Below are positions 1-60,189 of a stretch of DNA of 64,000 nucleotides, piece by piece (within the stretch, counting starts at the first letter, position 1; each line of letters opens with the position of its first letter). The notes beneath the pieces are model-generated. The model was given only the letters and a program-made list of their open reading frames with translations, was not told where the DNA came from and ran no database searches. Source of the stretch: Mobula hypostoma (lineage: Eukaryota); assembly GCF_963921235.1 (NCBI RefSeq), contig NC_086097.1:173602001-173666000 (forward strand), given 5' to 3'. Position numbers and translations under genes: made by a program.

Positions 1-263
1 GAAACTTCAGGGAATACAAACTCCAAAGCAGTTTCAGCCAGATTGTAAATAAGATTATTATTTTCACTGCCTAATCATTGCATATAGTAAGTAGAACTTT
101 TAACACAATAAGATTATCCACTGGCAAAACAACACACCTTTTGGGAGAGAAAGCTGATTCATGGCAGACAAGCAAACTCTAATTTCAGTGACTTCCCTTA
201 TAAAGAGATCAGTCAATTCTCCTATTCAGGCAATAAACTTTTACATGTTCCAGCTGCACATAC

Positions 264-398
264 CTGGGGCTTTGGCACAAGCTTTTATTGATCCCATGGT
301 CCCCGAAACACATTTTACCAATGATGTGCTACAGAATTTCAACTCAACGTTTTGGATAGAACCCTCCAGAGTTGGCAATGGATTCTGGGATTTCACAC
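264..398 (-). CDS. VPS13B: Internal coding exon of vacuolar protein sorting 13B (Cohen syndrome protein), 135 bp, phase 1/1
   Basis: Minus strand reads ttttcttttattag|GTGTGAAATCCCAG...GCCCCAG|gtatgt with a canonical acceptor and donor. It translates (G)VKSQNPLPTLEGSIQNVELKFCSTSLVKCVSGTMGSIKACAKAP, nearly identical to the remembered human VPS13B segment GVKSKNPLPTLEGSIQNVELKYCSTSLVKCASGTMGSIKICAKAP. Confidence 0.92.
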
Positions 399-1745
399 CT
401 AATAAAAGAAAATTGCAAATGAAGTAGTCTGCTGTGTTTAAATAATTAGGAATTCTAGATAGTGGAGTTATTTCTCCACACTTAGATGTAATGTTATACA
501 AACTGTGTATTCGTATATAACTGTATGAGCTTTGTACAAAATTACATAAATTGCAAAAAAAAATCAGCACAGGTTTAACTTTCAATCTTTTGAAAAATAC
601 ATTGTGAAGCAGTTTTTAATTTTCAAAATATTCAGATTTGCAAATTGCTCTGAATGATAGCTACAGATAATGAAGACAGTTAAACCTGCAACACAGGGCA
701 GTAAATTAATCTGACACTTCAAGTGCATTCTACTATGGCACTGCAGTGTAAATTTGGATATGAAGCACAACTAATTCCGGAGGCACGAGTCTCACATTGG
801 TTCGTTTCAGCACTTCATTGAGTACAAGCTAGAGTGGTCACCATGCCTAGTTTATAAAAGTGGCCTAATGGCCTCCTTAAAATAACCTTAACTTATTGAT
901 TAGTTCAAATGTTTAGTTAAGTGATTAGTTCAAAGTTTCTTCCAGTCCAAACTTTCTAAGCATCCCTAATTATTGGAAGAAAATCTGTGCATGCATCTAT
1001 GCTTGCACAGACCGTTCCTCAACGGGACAGTGGAGCTTGAACCAAAGCAGGAACCAAACAGTGTAAACAGGGTTCCATCTCAATGGAAATAGATATCACA
1101 AACAAACATATGATCCATCTAAACTAATGAACACTGATAGAAAACACACCTTCCTTCTCAGTCTCAAAAATGTTAAAAAAGTTCAGAACAGTACCGTGAT
1201 TGCATTTAGCTACCACTACAAAATAGCTTTGAACATATCTATGAAAGTAACTTGAAAGAAAGAATCGATCTCTAGTTTGTGATAAGCACTACTCAACAAT
1301 AGTAATTGGTTTAATGTAAGTGTGCATGACAATACCCATCAAATCTAACCTTGACATTTTTGCACACTGCTATGGAAAGTACAGTGCCTTCAAATTACAA
1401 GGATCTTTCCTCTGCTAATTAAACTTTATTTCTTCACAAATCTGCATCAGATCATCAAAGAGAAAAAAAATCAAATATTTTAGGTAAGGACAATATCTAA
1501 TTTTGTTTAAAATTGCATCATTTCAAAATCTCGTTTAAAATTTTCTGAAAACTTGAGTCCAAAGTCCATATTGTTTCAGACTTGAGAGATTTTGAAATGG
1601 AGATAGTTTTGCTGTGACTGCAAGCTTCCTCTTTAACTCAAACTAATTAGTTTATTAATAAACCACACAATGTATTTACTGATAAGGTCATTTTGTTAAC
1701 TATTTACTCTACTAATTTAACCTTTGCCTTACCTGGCTACTCATT

Positions 1746-9420: not shown

Positions 9421-10700
9421 AGCAACACACAGAGAATGTTGGAGGAACTCAGCAGGCCAGACAGCTTCGATAAAAAAAAAGCACAGTCAACTTTTTAGGC
9501 CGAGACCCTTCAGCAGGACTGGAGAAAAAGAAGTTGAGGAATAGGTTTAAAAGGTAGGGGGAGGGGAGAGAGAAACACAAGGTGATAGATGAAACTGGGG
9601 GAGGGGAACAAAGTAAAGACCTGGGAAGTTGATTGGTGAAAGAGATACAGGGCTGGAGAAGGTGGAATCTAATAGGAGACCACAGAACATCATGGAAGAA
9701 AGAAGAAGGGGAGGAGCCCCAGAGGGAGACGATGGGCAGGCAAGGAGATAAGGTGAGAGGGGGTAAAGGGGATGGGGAATAGTGCAGGGGGGAGGGTGGC
9801 ATTAACAGAAGTTCAAGATGTTCATGCCATCAGGTTGGAGGCTACTAGACAGAATATAAGGTGTTATTCCTCCAACTTGAGTGTGGCTTCATCGCGACAG
9901 TACAGAGGGGCATAGATTGACATATTGGAATGGGAATGGGAAGTGGAATTAAAATGGGTGGCCACAGGGAGATCCCACTTCTTCTAGTGGATGGAGCGTA
10001 GGTATTTGGCGAAGTGGTCTCCCAATCTACATCAGGTCTCACTGATATACAGGAGGCCACACCGGGAGCAACAGACAAAGTATATGACTCCAACAGACTC
10101 ACAGGTAAAGTGTCACCTCACCTAGAAGGACTATTTGGGGCCCTGAATGGTAGTGAGGGAGGAGGTGAAGGGACAAGTATAGCACTTGTTCTGCTTGCAA
10201 GGATAAGTGCCGGGAGGAAGATCAGTGGGGAGGGACGAATGGTCAAGGAAGTCGCGTAGGGTGTGATCGCTGTCGAAAGCAGACAGTGGGGGGAGGGAAA
10301 GATGTGCTTGATGGTGAGATCCCATTGGAGATGGTGGAAGTTCCGGAGAATTATGTGCTAGAAGTGGAGGCTGGTGGAGTGGTAGGTGAGGACAAGAGGA
10401 ACCTTATCCCTGGTAGGGTGGTAGAAGGATGGAGTAAGAACAGGCATGTGTGAAATGGAAAAGAGGCTGTTGAGGACAGCCTTGATGGTGAAGGAAGGGA
10501 AGACTCTTCCTTTGAAAAAGGAGGAATGAAAAGCATCACCCTGAGAGCAGATGCTGCAGAGACAAAGGAATTGAGAGAAGGGGTGGCATTTTTATAAGTA
10601 ACAGGGTGGGAAGAGGCATAGTCCAGGTAGCTGTGAGAGTTTATGAGTTTATAATGGACATCAGTAGATAAGCTGTCTCCAGAGACAGAGAGATCGAGAG
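9421..10700 (-). mobile_element. Penelope-like element (Neptune-type): RT thumb, Cys linker, GIY-YIG endonuclease and terminal repeat, degraded
   Basis: Minus-strand peptides STDVHYKLINSHSYLDYASSHP and PGTYPCKQNKCYTCPF, plus a VIY..CSRCGLLYI GIY-YIG-like region. Ends in the agcaacacac...ggaggaactcagcaggcc repeat with a mutated hammerhead. Confidence 0.85.
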
Positions 10701-13836: not shown

Positions 13837-13890
13837 CCCAAGTATAATGGTTTGAATAAGCCTGAATGGAACAGATTGAATTCCTATTCT

Positions 13891-14096
13891 AGCAACATAC
13901 ATCAAAGTTGCTGGTGAACGCAGCAGGCCAAGCAGCATCTATAGGAAGAGGCGCAGTCGACGTTAGTCCTGACGAAGGGTCTCGGCCTGAAACGTCGACT
14001 GCGCCTCTTCCTATAGATGCTGCTTGGCCTGCTGCGTTCACCAGCAACTTTGATGTATGTTGCTTGAATTTCCAGCATCTGCAGAATTCCTGTTGT
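13891..14096 (+). mobile_element. Young Penelope-derived fold-back insertion: 74-bp perfect inverted arms, 26-nt loop and unpaired tail
   Basis: 13891-13964 is the exact reverse complement of 13991-14064. Tail is tgaatttccagcatctgcagaattcctgttg. Duplication ttgaattcctattcta at 13876-13891 and 14097-14112. Confidence 0.9.
13965..14000 (+). ncRNA. Minimal type I hammerhead ribozyme motif
   Basis: AGUC-CUGACGA-AGG(GUCUCGG)CCU-GAAA-CG-UC/GACU: intact core, stem I AGUC:GACU, 3-bp stem II, palindromic ACGU stem III. Predicted cut after C13996. Confidence 0.75.
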
Positions 14097-15689
14097 TTGA
14101 ATTCCTATTCTATGTTATTTTCTTATGCATCATTCTGAAATTTTAGGTTCAAGAGTGCATTTTCACAAAGCATGAAAAGTTTCCTGTTTCATTAATAGGT
14201 TTAGATGTATTAGTACTATAGGTAAAACCCTTGACATCCATTTAACAAAGTACACATTTCAACTAAGAGTAATAAAATGATAGCTAGAACAAAGAAAATG
14301 GTAATATCCTGTTTAGTATTACGTAATCTCTGACACTATGTTTATAAGTAATTTAGGGCAAGGCTATGAGATGACAGTTGTTACATTGAAATAGAGTCAA
14401 GTGATAAGTGGAGTTCAACTGGCCAATTTGACAGCGTTTAAGGCAATGTTATCTTTTTATGTACAATTTTTTTATTTTGAAGACCACATCTTCAGAAGCA
14501 GCGTGTGCAAGCTTACATATAATCATCCATTTTGGGTTCTAAAGCATAGGGGTTTGGCTGTTGATGAATAGAATCTTCCAGTGCCATGAAGATTATGTCA
14601 CAAAGTTGCTTTTAACAACATTTGAAACAAATTCTGCTCATCTGAAGGTAAGAGCACTTAATTCCAAATTGGAACAGATTTTAACCAGGCAAGAGATCTG
14701 CCGATATCCACAAAGCAAAGAGCAACACAGTCAGCCAGTCTTGGTGCCAATCCAAACAAACCAAATGCCTCTTGGGTAAAGAGATTCATGCTTACAAGCT
14801 CCTAATATTAATTTAGGACATAAACTAGAGAATGCCAGAAATCTTCAACAGATCCCATAGTGGGAAACTGCAGGTGCTAGAAAAACAATGACTGCATTGG
14901 AACTGAGAATGCAGTGGGAAGATAGCCAGTATAAGAGGTTAGAGGGAGGGGTAAAACAGAAACTGGTTGGTAATATGTCAAATCAGATTGAGGAAACGAG
15001 TGATGAGCAGAAGGAACTAGGTGGGGTAGAGAGAGAGGTGAGTGTTGAGAAAGAAGTAGGTCAAGGATAGGTGAAAACCAATAAGGGAAGGATGATGGGA
15101 GATGGAACTAGGTGGGGGATGGGTTCGGAAAGGTGACATGGTCATAGCACTGGTTCTGATTAAAAGTCTACAACATTGCAAATTGCAAATCTTTTACCAA
15201 ATCCAGTGCTAACCAAAGCTCTTCATGGACTGCAGAGATTTATTATTTCTTTATGAAGACTAATTTTATGACCAGTTCTTCTAGCAATGATCAAAAAGAT
15301 TTGTGAAATATCTGTAATTTGAGGCAAACATATTTAAAATAGTTATATTAAACAGAAGGTTGTGCTTTGCACCGTACTGCTACCACAAAACAACAAATTC
15401 AATGTCATATATTGTAAGTCAGAGATAATAAACTTGTTTCTGATTCTGCCTGCAAAAGGAAGCATGTACCGCTGTTAAATCTCTAATATTAGCCAGCATT
15501 TGCAGTTTATATTTTGCCAAAAAACATGATTCCAGAAGAGAAATATAAAACTTGCCAAAGAAAACTGAGGAGCAAAAGATGCTGTGTCAACTGAAAGAAC
15601 ACAACTTCATGATATCTGAAGCCAAAGTATCAATAACAATGTTCCAGTTTTTTTAAATCATGCTTTATTTGGTCATGGTTATGGGTTTC

Positions 15690-33499: not shown

Positions 33500-33810
33500 A
33501 ACACACAAAATGCTGAAGGAACACAGTCTGTCAGGAAACGTTTATGGAAATGAATAAACAGTCATCGTTTCAAGCCAAGACCCTTCTTCAGGACTGAAAA
33601 GGGGTTGCTCCGGGTGGCAGAAGAGGAGGTCCTCATCCAACATATCGGAATGAAAATGAAAATCGGAATTAAACTGTTTGGCCACAGTTAGTTCTGCTTT
33701 TGGCAGGTGGACTGCAGGTGCTCTATGAAGCAGTCCCCCAATTTACGACAGGTCTCACCATTGTAGAGGCAGTCACATCGTGAAGACCAGACACAATAAA
33801 CAACCCAGAA
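33500..33810 (-). mobile_element. Old Penelope-like relic
   Basis: aacacacaaaatgctgaaggaacac...gacccttcttcaggactg, then sequence similar to the GIY-YIG region at 9930-10090. Confidence 0.6.
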
Positions 33811-41689: not shown

Positions 41690-42770
41690 TCAAGGGAAGA
41701 AGGGGTAGAGACAGGGGAAAGAGAAAGAAGGGGAGCAGGGAAATGGAGTGGAAAGAGGAAGTGGGAAAAGAAGAAGAGAGAGAAGAAGTGGAGAAAGGGA
41801 GGAAAAGGAGGATAGAGGGGGCAGACTTGAAGAGATAGAGTGAGGGTCAAGAAAGGTGTAAGAAGGCAAGAGGAGAGGGATAAGTTGGGAGAGAGAGGAG
41901 TGAGAAGCGGAGAGGGGTGTGTGCAGAAAGGGAGATGAAAGGGGAAGGAAGAAGTGGAGAAGAAGAGAGGAGAAAGCAAGAGTGGAGAGGGAGGAGAGGG
42001 AAGAGGGAGGAGAGGGAAGAGGGAGGAGAGGGAAGAGGGAGGAGAGGGAAGAGGGAGGAGAGGGAAGAGGGAGGAGAGGGAAGAGGGAGGAGAGGGGGAA
42101 GGGGGAAAAGGAGAAAGGGAGGAAAGGGGGAAAGAAGGGAAAGGAGAAAGGAGAGAAAAGGGAAAGAGAAGAAAAGGGGAGAGAGGAGAAAGAGGGAAAA
42201 AGGGAGAGAGGGGAATTAGGAAGGGAAATGAGTAACAGGGGAAAGGGAGAGGGGAGGACATAGGGGGAGAGAGGGGAAATAGCAAGAGAAATGAGAGAAA
42301 AGAAATGGGTAAGAGAGGGGAAAGGGGCAGAAGAGGGCAAAGGGGGAGAGAGCAGAAAGGGAGGAGAGAGGGGAAAGATGAGGGACAGGAAAAAGGAAGG
42401 GGACAAGAAGCATTTGGAAGAAATTAGAGTGGGAGGGGAGAAGAGAGGAGAGAAAGGGCAGATGGGAACAAAGAGGGAAGATGAGGGTGAGAAAGAGTGA
42501 AGAGGATGAGGGTGGAAGAAATGGGCACAGCAGGGGGAAAATAAGTAGAGAAGGCAAGGGGGGAGGGAGGAAGGGAGGGAGAGAGAGAGAAAGCAAACAG
42601 AGGATAGGAACAAGAAGCAGGTGTAAGCAGGGAAAGGAGCTGTGAATGAGCAGAAGAGGCAAGTTGAAAATGTGAGGAAGAGTGAGGGGGAAAAGAAGGG
42701 AGGGAGGGAGGGGAGAGAGTGGGATGAGAAAGTATGAGTGATGCGAAGGTGGGAGGGACAGAAAGATGTG
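41690..42770 (+). repeat. Purine-rich (GA) low-complexity tract including a 16-bp minisatellite (GAGGGAGGAGAGGGAA) x ~7 at 41987-42096
   Basis: Seen directly; it explains the stacked low-complexity ORFs here. Confidence 0.95.
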
Positions 42771-43079
42771 TAAACTGTTGACCTTAATGGCCTAAATCAA
42801 GCAGGATGCATGACCATCACTGCACCCAATGACAGCAGTTCAAAAAGGGAAGAAGTAGTATGAGTCAACATTGATAAATGCAGAACTCAGCTAACAAACT
42901 ATCAAAAATAATTAATTGCTTATTAAGATTATGGAGGAATGGCAAGACATTTAGTCAGAATACCCTCAATGACAAAACAATATCCTGCTTAAATTTACTT
43001 CACGGATTAAACAAAATATTGAAAATTATAACCACAAACAGCAGCTAAGATTCAACCTCGATTTTGTCGTGCATAAAGC

Positions 43080-56325: not shown

Positions 56326-56519
56326 CACAAACAAGAGAAAATCTGCAGATGCTGGAAATCCAAGCAACACACACACAGTGCTGGAGGAACTCAGCAGGCC
56401 AGAAAGCATCTAAGAAAAAGTTGACATTTCGGGCTGAGCCCTGATGAAGGGTTTCAGCCCGACTGTTTTCTCTTTTCCCGAGATGCTGCCTGGCCTGCCA
56501 AGTTCCTCCAGCATTTTGT
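56326..56519 (-). mobile_element. Older Penelope-derived fold-back insertion (tail plus imperfect inverted arms)
   Basis: acaagagaaaatctgcagatgctggaaatcc tail, arm agcaacacac...tgctggaggaactcagcaggcc, central ctgatgaagggtttcagccc, return arm gctgcctggcctgccaagttcctccagcattttg. Confidence 0.75.
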
Positions 56520-58889
56520 AGGAGAGGTGACAAACTTAGATTGTTATTCTGAAGTGTGGGGTGAGTGCAGACTTGATGAAAGCTCATACGATCATGAGAG
56601 GCACAGATATGGCAGACATTAAGAATCTTTTTCCCATGGGAGAAATGTCAAATACTAGATTTCATGCATTTTAGGTGAGTGGGGCAAGTTTAAGGAAGAT
56701 GTGCAGAGCAAGATCCACCGAGGGTGGTCCCTGGAATGGGCTGCCATGGTAAGTGATAGATGCAGGTACGACATGGCTTATAAGATGTTAAGTAGACACA
56801 TGAATATGCAGGAAATGGTAGGATATTGATCATGTGCAGGCAGAAAAGAGTTCACTTATTTTGATATTGTGAATGGTGAAGACACTGTGAGCCAAATGGC
56901 CTTCTATGGTGCTGTACTCTTCTATGAGTACAGCATCTGTTCAATGCCCTATGTGTTTACTCTATCCAATCTTCTATGTCAAAAACATCCAATATAATTA
57001 GTCTATCCACTCGTCTATATTCAATGTCCCATGTAATTAAGCGATCCAAACTTATTATTTTCCATGTTTCCAGTTACCACTTCCTTAAATGTTGATTCTA
57101 ATTTTTTCCACCACTGGATGTCAGGCTTACTGTTCTACAGCTCCATGTTTTATCTTTATCTCATTACTTAATAAGTGAGATTACATTTACTACTTTCCAA
57201 CTGCAAGAACTTTACAAAATACTATGGAATTTTAAAATCAATTAGTACATCCACTATCCACACAGTCACCTCCAAGGATCCAAATCACCATGTCCTGGGA
57301 ATTTATCACATTTCACATCTTAACAATGTTGTCAATCCTAATGTTTTACTTATATTAAGATTTACGACATTTCAAGTCCTCTGTTCACTCTTGATTTTTA
57401 GGTTTTCTATCTCTGTCTATAAAGACAAATGCAGTATATCTTTTCTCTGCAGTATATCTTTCCTCTGCCAATTCTTTAATCCCCTATATAATCTCTCCTT
57501 TCAGTCTCTATGGGACCTAGGTTAATTTTAGCTTCTCGTTTCCTCTTTTCAAATCTATTGAAATACCTACAGTCTTCTTAGGCATCTCACTAATCTACTC
57601 TCTTTTTTTTTTATATTTCACTGCTTTGGTTCTCCTTTTAATGAATTCTGAAAGCTTCCCAATTCTCAGTCTTAATGCTTTGCTTGGCAATATTTGAGCA
57701 AATGGTAATTTTAATTTCTCTTTAGAGACACAACTGATCCACCTTTTATATTTTAAAGAGATATATCTTACTTTTAAACCTTGAACTAATTCTTTAAACA
57801 TGAACTTGGATTACTGTCATGGCTTTTATTGCAATTTTCCAATGTACTAACAACAAATCACACCACTGGCCAATAAACCTTTGTTTCAAGATTGAACTAA
57901 ATCACTTTCAATTTTTAAATAAAATTCCAAAGTATTATGGGCACCCTTCCATAATGGTCCCTTACATATCACGTTATTGATTATGCTTTCTCTTTTTGCA
58001 AATGATGATCTAAAATAGATTGTTGTTTCACTGATTCCTTCTTTACCAGTTTGCTTTGCACTTTAAAATTTTTTTTGTAATATTTAACTGACAGCATTGG
58101 TTACTTTGCAAGTATGTCTGTTAAGATGCTTTGATTAGCACTGCCATAAAGATTCAGATAAAGAGCCCTTAAAAGTGACGTTGAAGAACTTCCCAATCAC
58201 TTTATTCACACTACTCGGATCAAGGATGCATTATTATCAATTAGATAGGCTCTCCATCATTGCATCTGAAAGGCATGGGGAAGCTGTGGATGGCGAATCA
58301 GTACATGCAGCCAGGCCAGTCTGATTCAGTCCAGAATATTCTGTGAAAACCACAGAAAGTAAAACTGGAAAGCACAATAATGAATCTTCTCTTAAATAAT
58401 CAAAAAATATAGGACATCTAAAAGGCATTTGGATAAGTACAAACGTTTGTACATGAATAGGAAAAAGGGATAGGAGTCAAGCCAGACCCAGGCAAACAGT
58501 AAGCATTTTGGTTAGCATGGACAGATTGGGCAATCAGCCTTGTTTCTATGCTGTATAACTTTATAAGAGAACATCACAGGTTAGTTGTATTGCTGATAGC
58601 ACAGAAAGTTGTCGTAGGTTACAACAAGTCATTGGTAGGAATGCAGAGCTGAGTTGAAAAGTAATAGATGGAGCTCAATCTAGAAAAGTGTGAAGGATAC
58701 ACTTCGGAAGGTTAATCTGCAACACAGAGTACAAGATCAGTGGCAGGATTCTTCGAATTGTGGAGGAACAGCGGGATCTCGGGGTCCATATCAGAATCAG
58801 AACCAAAATCAGATTTATTATCACCAGCAACATACATCAAAGTTGCTGGTGAACGCAGCAGGCCAAGCAGCATCTATAGGAAGAGGCGC

Positions 58890-58925
58890 AGTCGACGTTT
58901 CAGGCCGAGACCCTTCGTCAGGACT
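58890..58925 (-). ncRNA. Minimal type I hammerhead ribozyme motif (mirror copy, sense to VPS13B)
   Basis: Exact reverse complement of 59034-59069. Confidence 0.7.
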
Positions 58926-59033
58926 AACTGAAGGAAGAGTGAGTAAGGGATTTGAAAGCTGGAGGGGGAGGGGGAGATGCATCTCCCCCTCCCCCTCCAG
59001 CTTTCAAATCCCTTACTCACTCTTCCTTCAGTT

Positions 59034-59069
59034 AGTCCTGACGAAGGGTCTCGGCCTGAAACGTCGACT
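59034..59069 (+). ncRNA. Minimal type I hammerhead ribozyme motif
   Basis: agtc ctgacga agggtctcggcct gaaa cg tc gact, identical to 13965-14000. Confidence 0.75.
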
Positions 59070-60189
59070 GCGCCTCTTCCTATAGATGCTGCTTGGCCTG
59101 CTGCGTTCACCAGCAACTTTGATGTATGTTGCTTGAATTTCCAGCATCTGCAGAATTCCTGTTGTTTATTATCACCAGCATGTGACATGAAATTTGTTAA
59201 CTTAGCAGCAGCAGTTCAATGTAATACATTATATAGAAGAAAAAAAATAATAAATCAATCAATTACAGCATACATATATTGAATAGATTAAAAATTGAGC
59301 AAAAAACAGAAATACTATATATTAAAAAAGTGAGGTCCATTGTCCATTAAGGAATCGGATGGCAGAGGGGAAGAAGCTGCTTCTGAATCTCTGAGTGTGC
59401 CTTCAGGCTTCTGTACCTCCTACCTGATGGTAACAGTGAAAAAAGGGCATGCCTTGGTGCTGGAGGTCCTTAATAATAGACGTTACCTTCTGAAACACCA
59501 CTCCTTGAAGATATCCTGGGTACTTTGTAAGCTAGTACCCAAGATGGAGCCGACTAAATTTACAACCCTCTGCAGCTTCTTTCGGTCCTGTGCAATAGTC
59601 CCTCCGTACGAGACAGTGATGCAGCCTGTCAGAATGCTCTCCACAGTTTTTAAGAATATGCGTTGACATACCAAATCTCTTCAAACATGTAATGAAGTAT
59701 AGCCGCTGTCTTGCTTTCTTTATTACATCAATCTGTTGGGACCAGATTAGATCCTCAGAGATCTTGACACTCAGGAACTTGAAATCAAAGTTGCTATGCA
59801 AGTTGATAGGGTGATTATTAAAGTGTATGGTGTATTGCCTTCATTAGTCACGTTATTGAGTTCAAGAGCTCCTTGAACACGACTACTGTATCTGCTTCTA
59901 CCACCTCTGCGACAGCACATTCCAGGGACAATCGACTCAGTGCAAGAAACATGCGCAGAATTCTTGTTTGAACTTTTTCCCTCTCATCTTAAAGCCATCC
60001 TTCTAGTATCTGACACTTCCACCCACTGAAAAACAGACTCTGACCATTATCCCTATTTATGACTTTTTTAGTTCTAAATACTCCTACCAAGAAGCCACAT
60101 GGTTGCATTGGTCCAGAACAAGACTGCAAGTTAGCTAAACCCTTCTTACAGCTACTACTGTCTAATCAGGCCACATCCTGGTGCACAGC

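Follow-up and report, generated by a model that had tools for sequence, protein, structure and literature searches.

A perfect palindrome in a VPS13B intron of Mobula hypostoma is a young Penelope-like insertion, probably formed by twin target-primed reverse transcription

We analysed a 64-kb stretch of the Mobula hypostoma genome (hereafter the window, to which the coordinates refer) and a palindrome that it contains at 58826-59133. This palindrome is a young, 5′-truncated copy of an autonomous Penelope-like element (PLE) of the Neptune type, encoding a reverse transcriptase (RT) and a GIY-YIG endonuclease (EN), and the process that probably made it at insertion is twin target-primed reverse transcription, in which microhomology would have linked one cDNA to the other. 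The window locus is an ordinary one, and it is the thousands of near-identical young insertions of the family that make the mechanism a countable test. Between self-priming and twin priming at a symmetric double nick, the copy counts favour the latter.

Anatomy and parentage of the palindrome

Direct comparison of the arms bore out the spacer-less perfect palindrome described in a first-pass annotation of the window: the two 154-nt arms are 100% complementary, with zero mismatches and 0 nt of spacer. Since the runner-up spacer-less palindrome within the 64 kb has arms of only 8 nt, a chance origin is excluded. The features of the locus and of its surroundings are as follows.

262-399, minus strand: VPS13B exon, 96% identity to shark and skate VPS13B; the sole exon found in the window
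13876-14112, plus strand: second insertion of the same family; 137 nt of the forward part identical, an inverted arm of 79 nt, a spacer of 26 nt and a 16-nt duplication of its own
58814-58829, plus strand: left copy of the target-site duplication (TSD); its terminal AGCA (4 nt) is shared with the beginning of the inverted arm
58826-58979, minus strand: inverted arm, antisense of the element 3′ end, from an internal tail-less start site
58889-58926, minus strand: mirror copy of the hammerhead motif, minimal form
58978-58981, no strand: TGCA, the axis word; self-complementary within the parent element, it joins the arms as a 4-nt microhomology
58980-59133, plus strand: forward arm, final part of the 3′ UTR/pLTR of a PLE
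59033-59070, plus strand: minimal type I hammerhead motif, with features as in PMC4209133; predicted cut after 59065
59134-59167, plus strand: unpaired tail; in longer copies it leads, with the frame kept, into the 5′ part of the ORF
59165-59180, plus strand: right copy of the TSD; its opening TTT (3 nt) is shared with the end of the element
59165-59785, minus strand: 3′ end of an older non-LTR retroelement (the target), ~81% identity to its other copies

The tail measures 31-34 nt (59134-59164, or to 59167 when the three T common to the duplication are counted), and the 16-bp target duplication, TTTATTATCACCAGCA, overlaps the arm start by 4 nt and the element end by 3 nt. An AATCAG-type tail of the older target element lies at ~58790-58813, and related copies of this repeat hold the 16-mer only once, right beside such a tail. 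Hence, the 16-bp repeat is a true target duplication, and the ~31-nt tail and 16-bp duplication reported in the annotation are confirmed. Its further statement that a Rex1-type tail had been duplicated was correct as to the duplication, but the 16-mer adjoins the AATCAG-type tail rather than lying inside it. The older element shows this tail and RT-end fragments, with PF09004 in one related copy, and it may be of the Rex1/Babar type. Two more insertions (L092 and L127) adjoin such a tail in other copies of this older family. In the 53 PLE copies compared, arm mismatch averages 1.5%, and the perfect arms in the window are not exceptional, since 13 of the 53 are mismatch-free.

A pattern search with a family 56-mer returned 8,680 exact matches genome-wide and 0 for its backwards control. 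In longer copies, the forward arm runs unbroken into an ORF with RT and, at its C terminus, GIY-YIG, in an element unit of ~3.5 kb. Open stretches of 830 aa (L085) and 770 aa (L086) matched RVT_1 (E 9e-5 and 2e-4, respectively) and GIY-YIG (E 0.0016 and 0.0025), in each case below the Pfam cut-offs; the element protein had 1,897 homologues at E ≤ 1e-20, and its N-terminal domain just two. None of the four long copies and L081, which were examined for it, holds an intact full-length ORF. The tail is in frame with the 5′ part of the ORF in tandem copies, of which L081 is a partial one. The family presents a single ORF for RT and GIY-YIG, a pLTR with a minimal hammerhead motif in partly tandem or inverted arrangement, and a tail of 30-40 bp at one end.

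The annotation had proposed a Penelope-like origin, which was upheld, as the arm is homologous to the pLTR/3′ end of an RT/GIY-YIG element, and a Neptune type. A C-X4-C-XX-C linker, described as a mark of Neptune/Nematis in the available text of PMC8557442, lies directly upstream of the EN and also in 4 of 5 aligned homologues; by this motif, which alone also fits Nematis, the element is classed as Neptune type, as first suggested. On the other hand, the distinct protein-free element mobilised in trans that the annotation envisaged has to be abandoned, the forward arm being nothing other than the RT/GIY-YIG element's own 3′ end (pLTR). Since longer copies continue the arm into the RT/GIY-YIG ORF, the palindrome does not represent a separate non-autonomous family.

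The second insertion of the window (13876-14112) has a centre different from that of the palindrome and a junction microhomology of 3 nt. An older relative at 56329-56519 (minus strand, ~83% identical) has the same inverted-arm-plus-tail form, with a 51-nt spacer, and so the inverted-arm process predates the young subfamily. Single pLTR fragments of older date, whose hammerhead motifs have decayed, lie at 9445-9571 and 33559-33595 (both minus strand), and a long low-complexity purine-rich tract occupies 41900-42800.

Copy survey and the origin of the inverted arm

The genome-wide tabulation of arm, axis, tail and TSD that the annotation had put forward was carried out on 102 sampled copies (set 1: 100 among the matches listed plus the two window copies, unselected for structure), alongside an independent set 2 of 58 loci picked solely on their central junction. 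The sampled copies are the first places among the matches listed, on the largest contigs, rather than random draws, and boundaries are blurred by 1-2 nt through BLAST ends and maximal-extension duplications. An inverted 5′ arm was present in 61 of the 102 copies of set 1 (L013, inverted but missed by the parser because of an intervening insert, is excluded from the 61), which gives an estimated ~5,000 inverted stumps in the genome (8,680 x 61/102). Among the inverted copies, 54 of 61 had a duplication of 12-19 nt (mode 14); the median tail length in the set was 37 nt, and 26 of the 41 non-inverted copies were without a duplication of at least 10 nt. In set 2, all 58 loci had exactly one tail. 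The idea that the palindrome is a unique structure was rejected, given the ~60% of inverted copies in the sample and the recurrence of exactly this axis, which is found at five loci in all.

According to the mechanism that we propose, a likely dimeric protein would nick both strands of a target with two-fold symmetry, the nicks being ~13-14 bp apart, and each 3′ end would prime an antisense cDNA, usually on one RNA. One cDNA would start at the tail end and the other ~35 nt further in, which would leave a tail on one side only. The internally primed cDNA would run ahead and often end longer; the cDNA ends, of the same sequence and polarity, would then be joined, either through a microhomology of 2-7 nt or with a short insert between them, and the gaps filled. 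At the window locus, both cDNAs would have stopped at TGCA, which is self-complementary, so that they could anneal mutually with no spacer. We infer the dimer, the single RNA, the order of events and the repair pathway from the observed anatomy, family and copy statistics: target symmetry, one tail, arm bias, junctions and shared haplotype together fit a double nick, twin cDNAs and end-joining.

The target sites are symmetric. Outside both nicks, T+3, G+5, T+7 and T+8 were preferred, the same on both strands, so that the preference can be written as approximately AAnCnAnn-[TSD]-nnTnGnTT. Based on exact duplications of at least 10 nt only (48/61 copies in set 1 and 48/57 parsed loci in set 2), the two-fold symmetry of the profile was r = 0.72 in set 1 (48 sites), 0.81 in set 2 (48 sites) and 0.84 for the pooled 96 sites (permutation p ≤ 3e-4). 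The right flank of the window locus fits this preference in part, at T+3 and T+8 only. Short outer microhomologies were common among the family insertions (set 1), and the AATCAG-type tail flank of the older repeat may be a favoured insertion site.

The lengths of the two arms are biased in one direction. The inverted arm was longer in 34 of the 61 copies, the tailed arm in 20 and neither in seven, a difference that is not significant (p = 0.076); however, where the excess was more than 100 nt, the inverted arm was the longer in 12 copies versus one for the tailed arm (sign test p = 0.003), and the excess reached 1.8 kb. This excess sequence cannot have been copied from the tailed arm, since it is absent there. 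The observation bears on an alternative in which a cDNA primed at the tail end snaps back, is copied as far as ~35 nt from where it began and then becomes attached to the target's other end, with deletions at the centre occurring later. Such a snap-back predicts the correlation found between the lengths of the two arms (rho 0.70, set 1), accounts for the haplotype agreement between arms and fits the 20/61 copies with a longer tailed arm, to which the spacer belongs, the window copy at 13876-14112 among them; moreover, snap-back 5′ junctions are reported for R2 proteins in the available text of PMC11371274. It does not explain the 34 inverted arms that hold sequence lacking from the tailed arm, and a one-sided bias is not expected from later deletion. 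Together with the haplotypes and centres described below, this leaves snap-back as an unlikely route.

We then compared the two arms of each copy. They agreed at 286 of 317 polymorphic sites, versus 63% when shuffled, and at 12 chosen sites, they were fully concordant in 46 of 53 copies. Post-insertion gene conversion was rejected as the cause of this agreement, since only 12 of 76 rare variants were common to both arms and later homogenisation was therefore limited. As the remaining 7/53 copies have discordant arms, a single RNA template is not universal. The arms of L008 differ at 4 of 11 haplotype sites and those of L081 at 3 of 12, indicating two templates or a mosaic, and this multi-site discordance counts against snap-back. 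In L046 and L056, one arm stops by the hammerhead edge (-118 and -110) and the other runs 1.2-1.8 kb, as if the arms had been primed on different pLTRs of one transcript.

The inner junctions point to end-joining. An overlap of at least 2 nt (range 2-7) was seen in 24 of 38 insert-free junctions, where 15.6% was expected (p = 4e-11), and 23 of 61 copies had short inserts; by eye, several of these seem to have been templated. Centre positions range from ~-58 to -1900 nt and differ between near-identical copies. These results can be set against the reading given in PMC3846280 for head-to-head palindromes at Penelope junctions, in which an antisense transcript primes itself and the resulting hairpin intermediate is integrated, with one end trimmed to a tail by the endonuclease; the tail is likewise ascribed to endonuclease resolution in the available text of PMC8557442. 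Self-priming of this kind has the advantage of being published and would yield identical arms and a single tail, but the axis is not fixed, and very unequal arms and symmetric targets with a 13-14-bp stagger are more simply obtained by priming at two ends. We regard it as very unlikely.

Twin priming also bears on the spacer-less centres. There were two of them among the 61 copies of set 1 (TGCA and GGCC) and eight among 50 of 301 loci listed, and 8/8 lie at self-complementary words, although self-complementary axes are 4 of 16 possible (axes counted by hand). The spacer-less words that are self-complementary in the parent element are TGCA, GTCGAC, ACGT, GGCC and CG, and the GTCGAC centre occurs at 17 exact loci. 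This recurrence is a further difficulty for snap-back, as a zero-loop fold-back of a nucleic acid is sterically implausible.

The 44-base TGCA axis was matched exactly at five loci, including that of the window; three of the four others are each flanked by an exact duplication of their own, and in one of the four there is a perfect 156-bp arm. Five loci with the same axis could reflect a non-autonomous palindrome that propagates itself in the manner of a retrozyme or MITE and has active ribozymes on both strands, and retrozymes are indeed reported as Penelope-pLTR derivatives (bioRxiv 10.64898/2026.07.22.740005, in the text available). However, the same-axis loci differ in their left ends (-17, -18, -20, -30 and -31), tail ends and variants, which implies that each was built anew and largely refutes such a unit. 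In addition, the arms at the locus are head-to-head with no tandem head-to-tail units, the hammerhead is predicted to be sequestered, and single minimal hammerheads were without cleavage in vitro, according to the available text of PMC4209133. A self-propagating palindrome is thus highly improbable.

A perfect spacer-less palindrome is also the typical form of an assembly or library fold-back artefact, a possibility that the annotation had itself raised. Read contigs from two runs labelled as this species, made from a single sample that may be the assembly's own, span the left junction and extend 22-23 nt into the arm with no differences; among the pieces listed, none reaches the axis or the right junction. 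The left junction in the reads, the one-sided tail with its flanking duplication, the four more loci with the same axis and the ~60% of the family that is inverted all speak against an artefact at the window locus, to which we give almost no credence.

Hammerhead motifs, host gene and age of the insertion

The annotation had assigned a ribozyme to each strand. As a sequence motif this holds, with stem I UAGUC/GACUG, core CUGACGA, a bulged A, stem II GGGU/GCCU, GAAA and a palindromic ACGU; an Rfam search of the locus returned no hammerhead and only generic hairpin (miRNA) matches, below gathering scores. A free ribozyme fold is not predicted. The locus is predicted to form a 152-bp hairpin of ~-338 kcal/mol, with the antisense arm transcribed first on either strand, and the predicted pair probability of helix I is ~1e-49 in the full hairpin and 0.002 in the arm alone, so that the hammerheads are predicted to be fully sequestered on either strand. 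Because they are predicted to be locked in this hairpin within a large intron, the window copy is most likely inert. U at position 11.1 was by far the commonest form (103 counted motifs). At window position 59057, the young subfamily has this U, and older copies keep the conserved C.

The hammerhead also marks a preferred end of the arms: 28 of 163 arm 5′ ends lie within 7 nt of the 5′ edge of the motif (element -119, window 59034), versus 6 of 163 near the predicted cut, and hammerhead cleavage is therefore not favoured as the source of these ends. The cluster at 59034 comes after a polypyrimidine-AG stretch. Splicing or a shared leader at the -118 cluster was rejected, as the 41 non-inverted copies are without common upstream sequence. 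The 5′ edge fits an initiator-type consensus, and it may be the transcript start. As the window copy goes 56 nt beyond this edge, it was likely templated on the 3′ pLTR.

We put at about even the chances that twin priming is the normal Penelope route, with a dimer acting on one RNA, a symmetric, transposase-like stagger of 13-14 bp, two RT starts at fixed sites 35 nt apart, hammerhead-edge ends that represent the transcript start and short stumps that are primed on the 5′ pLTR. If true, one mechanism would account for tail, inverted pLTR and junction palindromes alike, and thousands of near-perfect hairpins would have been seeded genome-wide, some of them intronic, as potential dsRNA and cruciform sites.

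The N-terminal VPS13 exons lie 220-305 kb past the window end, upstream and on the same strand. Since these and the exon at 262-399 flank the palindrome on the minus strand, the insertion is intronic, in agreement with the VPS13B context given in the annotation. The VPS13 gene extends over at least 0.9 Mb (contig ~173.07-173.97 Mb), with one exon found in the 64-kb window. An effect of the insertion on VPS13B is possible, though unsupported. In a related species (~1.7% divergent; two runs, one sample), the fit of the read contig ends exactly at 58829 and is followed by four unlike letters, which suggests an empty site in this close relative. The recent insertion claimed in the annotation is in keeping with this apparently empty site and with a forward arm that is 100% identical over 176 nt to another family copy.

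Comparison with known systems

The architecture of inverted arm, tail and TSD is already published for EN+ PLEs (PMC8557442, PMC3846280). As far as the available text of these accounts goes, the family resembles EN+ PLE insertions in its 5′ truncation, adjacent inverted 5′-truncated copy, 30-40-bp tail at one end and TSD, as well as in its palindromic inverted junctions, a tail that overlaps the ORF start and the order of RT followed by GIY-YIG. It departs from them in its variable axis and in the thousands of young copies that permit counting, and the same portions of text give no symmetric target consensus, arm-length asymmetry or twin-priming reading. In the search listings for the wider Penelope literature, no paper came up with a symmetric target preference, a rule of one tail, an arm-length bias or a twin-priming reading, and the origin of PLE inverted repeats and tails is still called open in the texts available.

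The motifs resemble the minimal hammerheads of metazoan PLEs in the available text of PMC4209133, with a helix I of 4-5 bp, a bulged base before helix II and a palindromic 15.2-16.2 region, and differ from them in a short helix II and a U at 11.1 (a wobble for the conserved G-C); opposite-strand hammerhead pairs 100-700 bp apart are already recorded there. Unlike in non-LTR retrozymes, the arms of the locus are head-to-head, with no tandem hammerhead units.

The Poseidon_Ac (PAc) protein, a dimer by prediction, cuts and extends both strands in vitro; RT starts internally, at two adjacent sites between which the tail lies, and insertion proceeds without the need for hammerhead cleavage (PMC11167929, in the text available). 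Its start sites show no strand difference in vitro, whereas the family described here has strictly one tail per insertion, and PAc priming took place at a site without homology, in contrast to the frequent short outer microhomologies of this family. PAc belongs to the Penelope/Poseidon clade, not to Neptune, and the formation and joining of inverted repeats are unexplained in that text. By analogy, PAc supplies a biochemical precedent, and LINE-1 (L1) twin priming a conceptual precedent, for the proposed mechanism. If this mechanism is true, the PLE would be a retroelement for which one RNA serves to write both strands, a property of relevance for gene writing with RTs.

In L1 twin priming, it is an upstream portion of the RNA that gives rise to the inverted piece. 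L1 inversion is a minority outcome, whereas in the present family it is the majority, the starts lie ~35 nt apart at fixed sites and the arms overlap into a palindrome. The proposed route nevertheless shares with L1 twin priming, as presented in the available text of PMC10760644, a second priming at the other target end, cDNAs joined by microhomology and a TSD that is kept.
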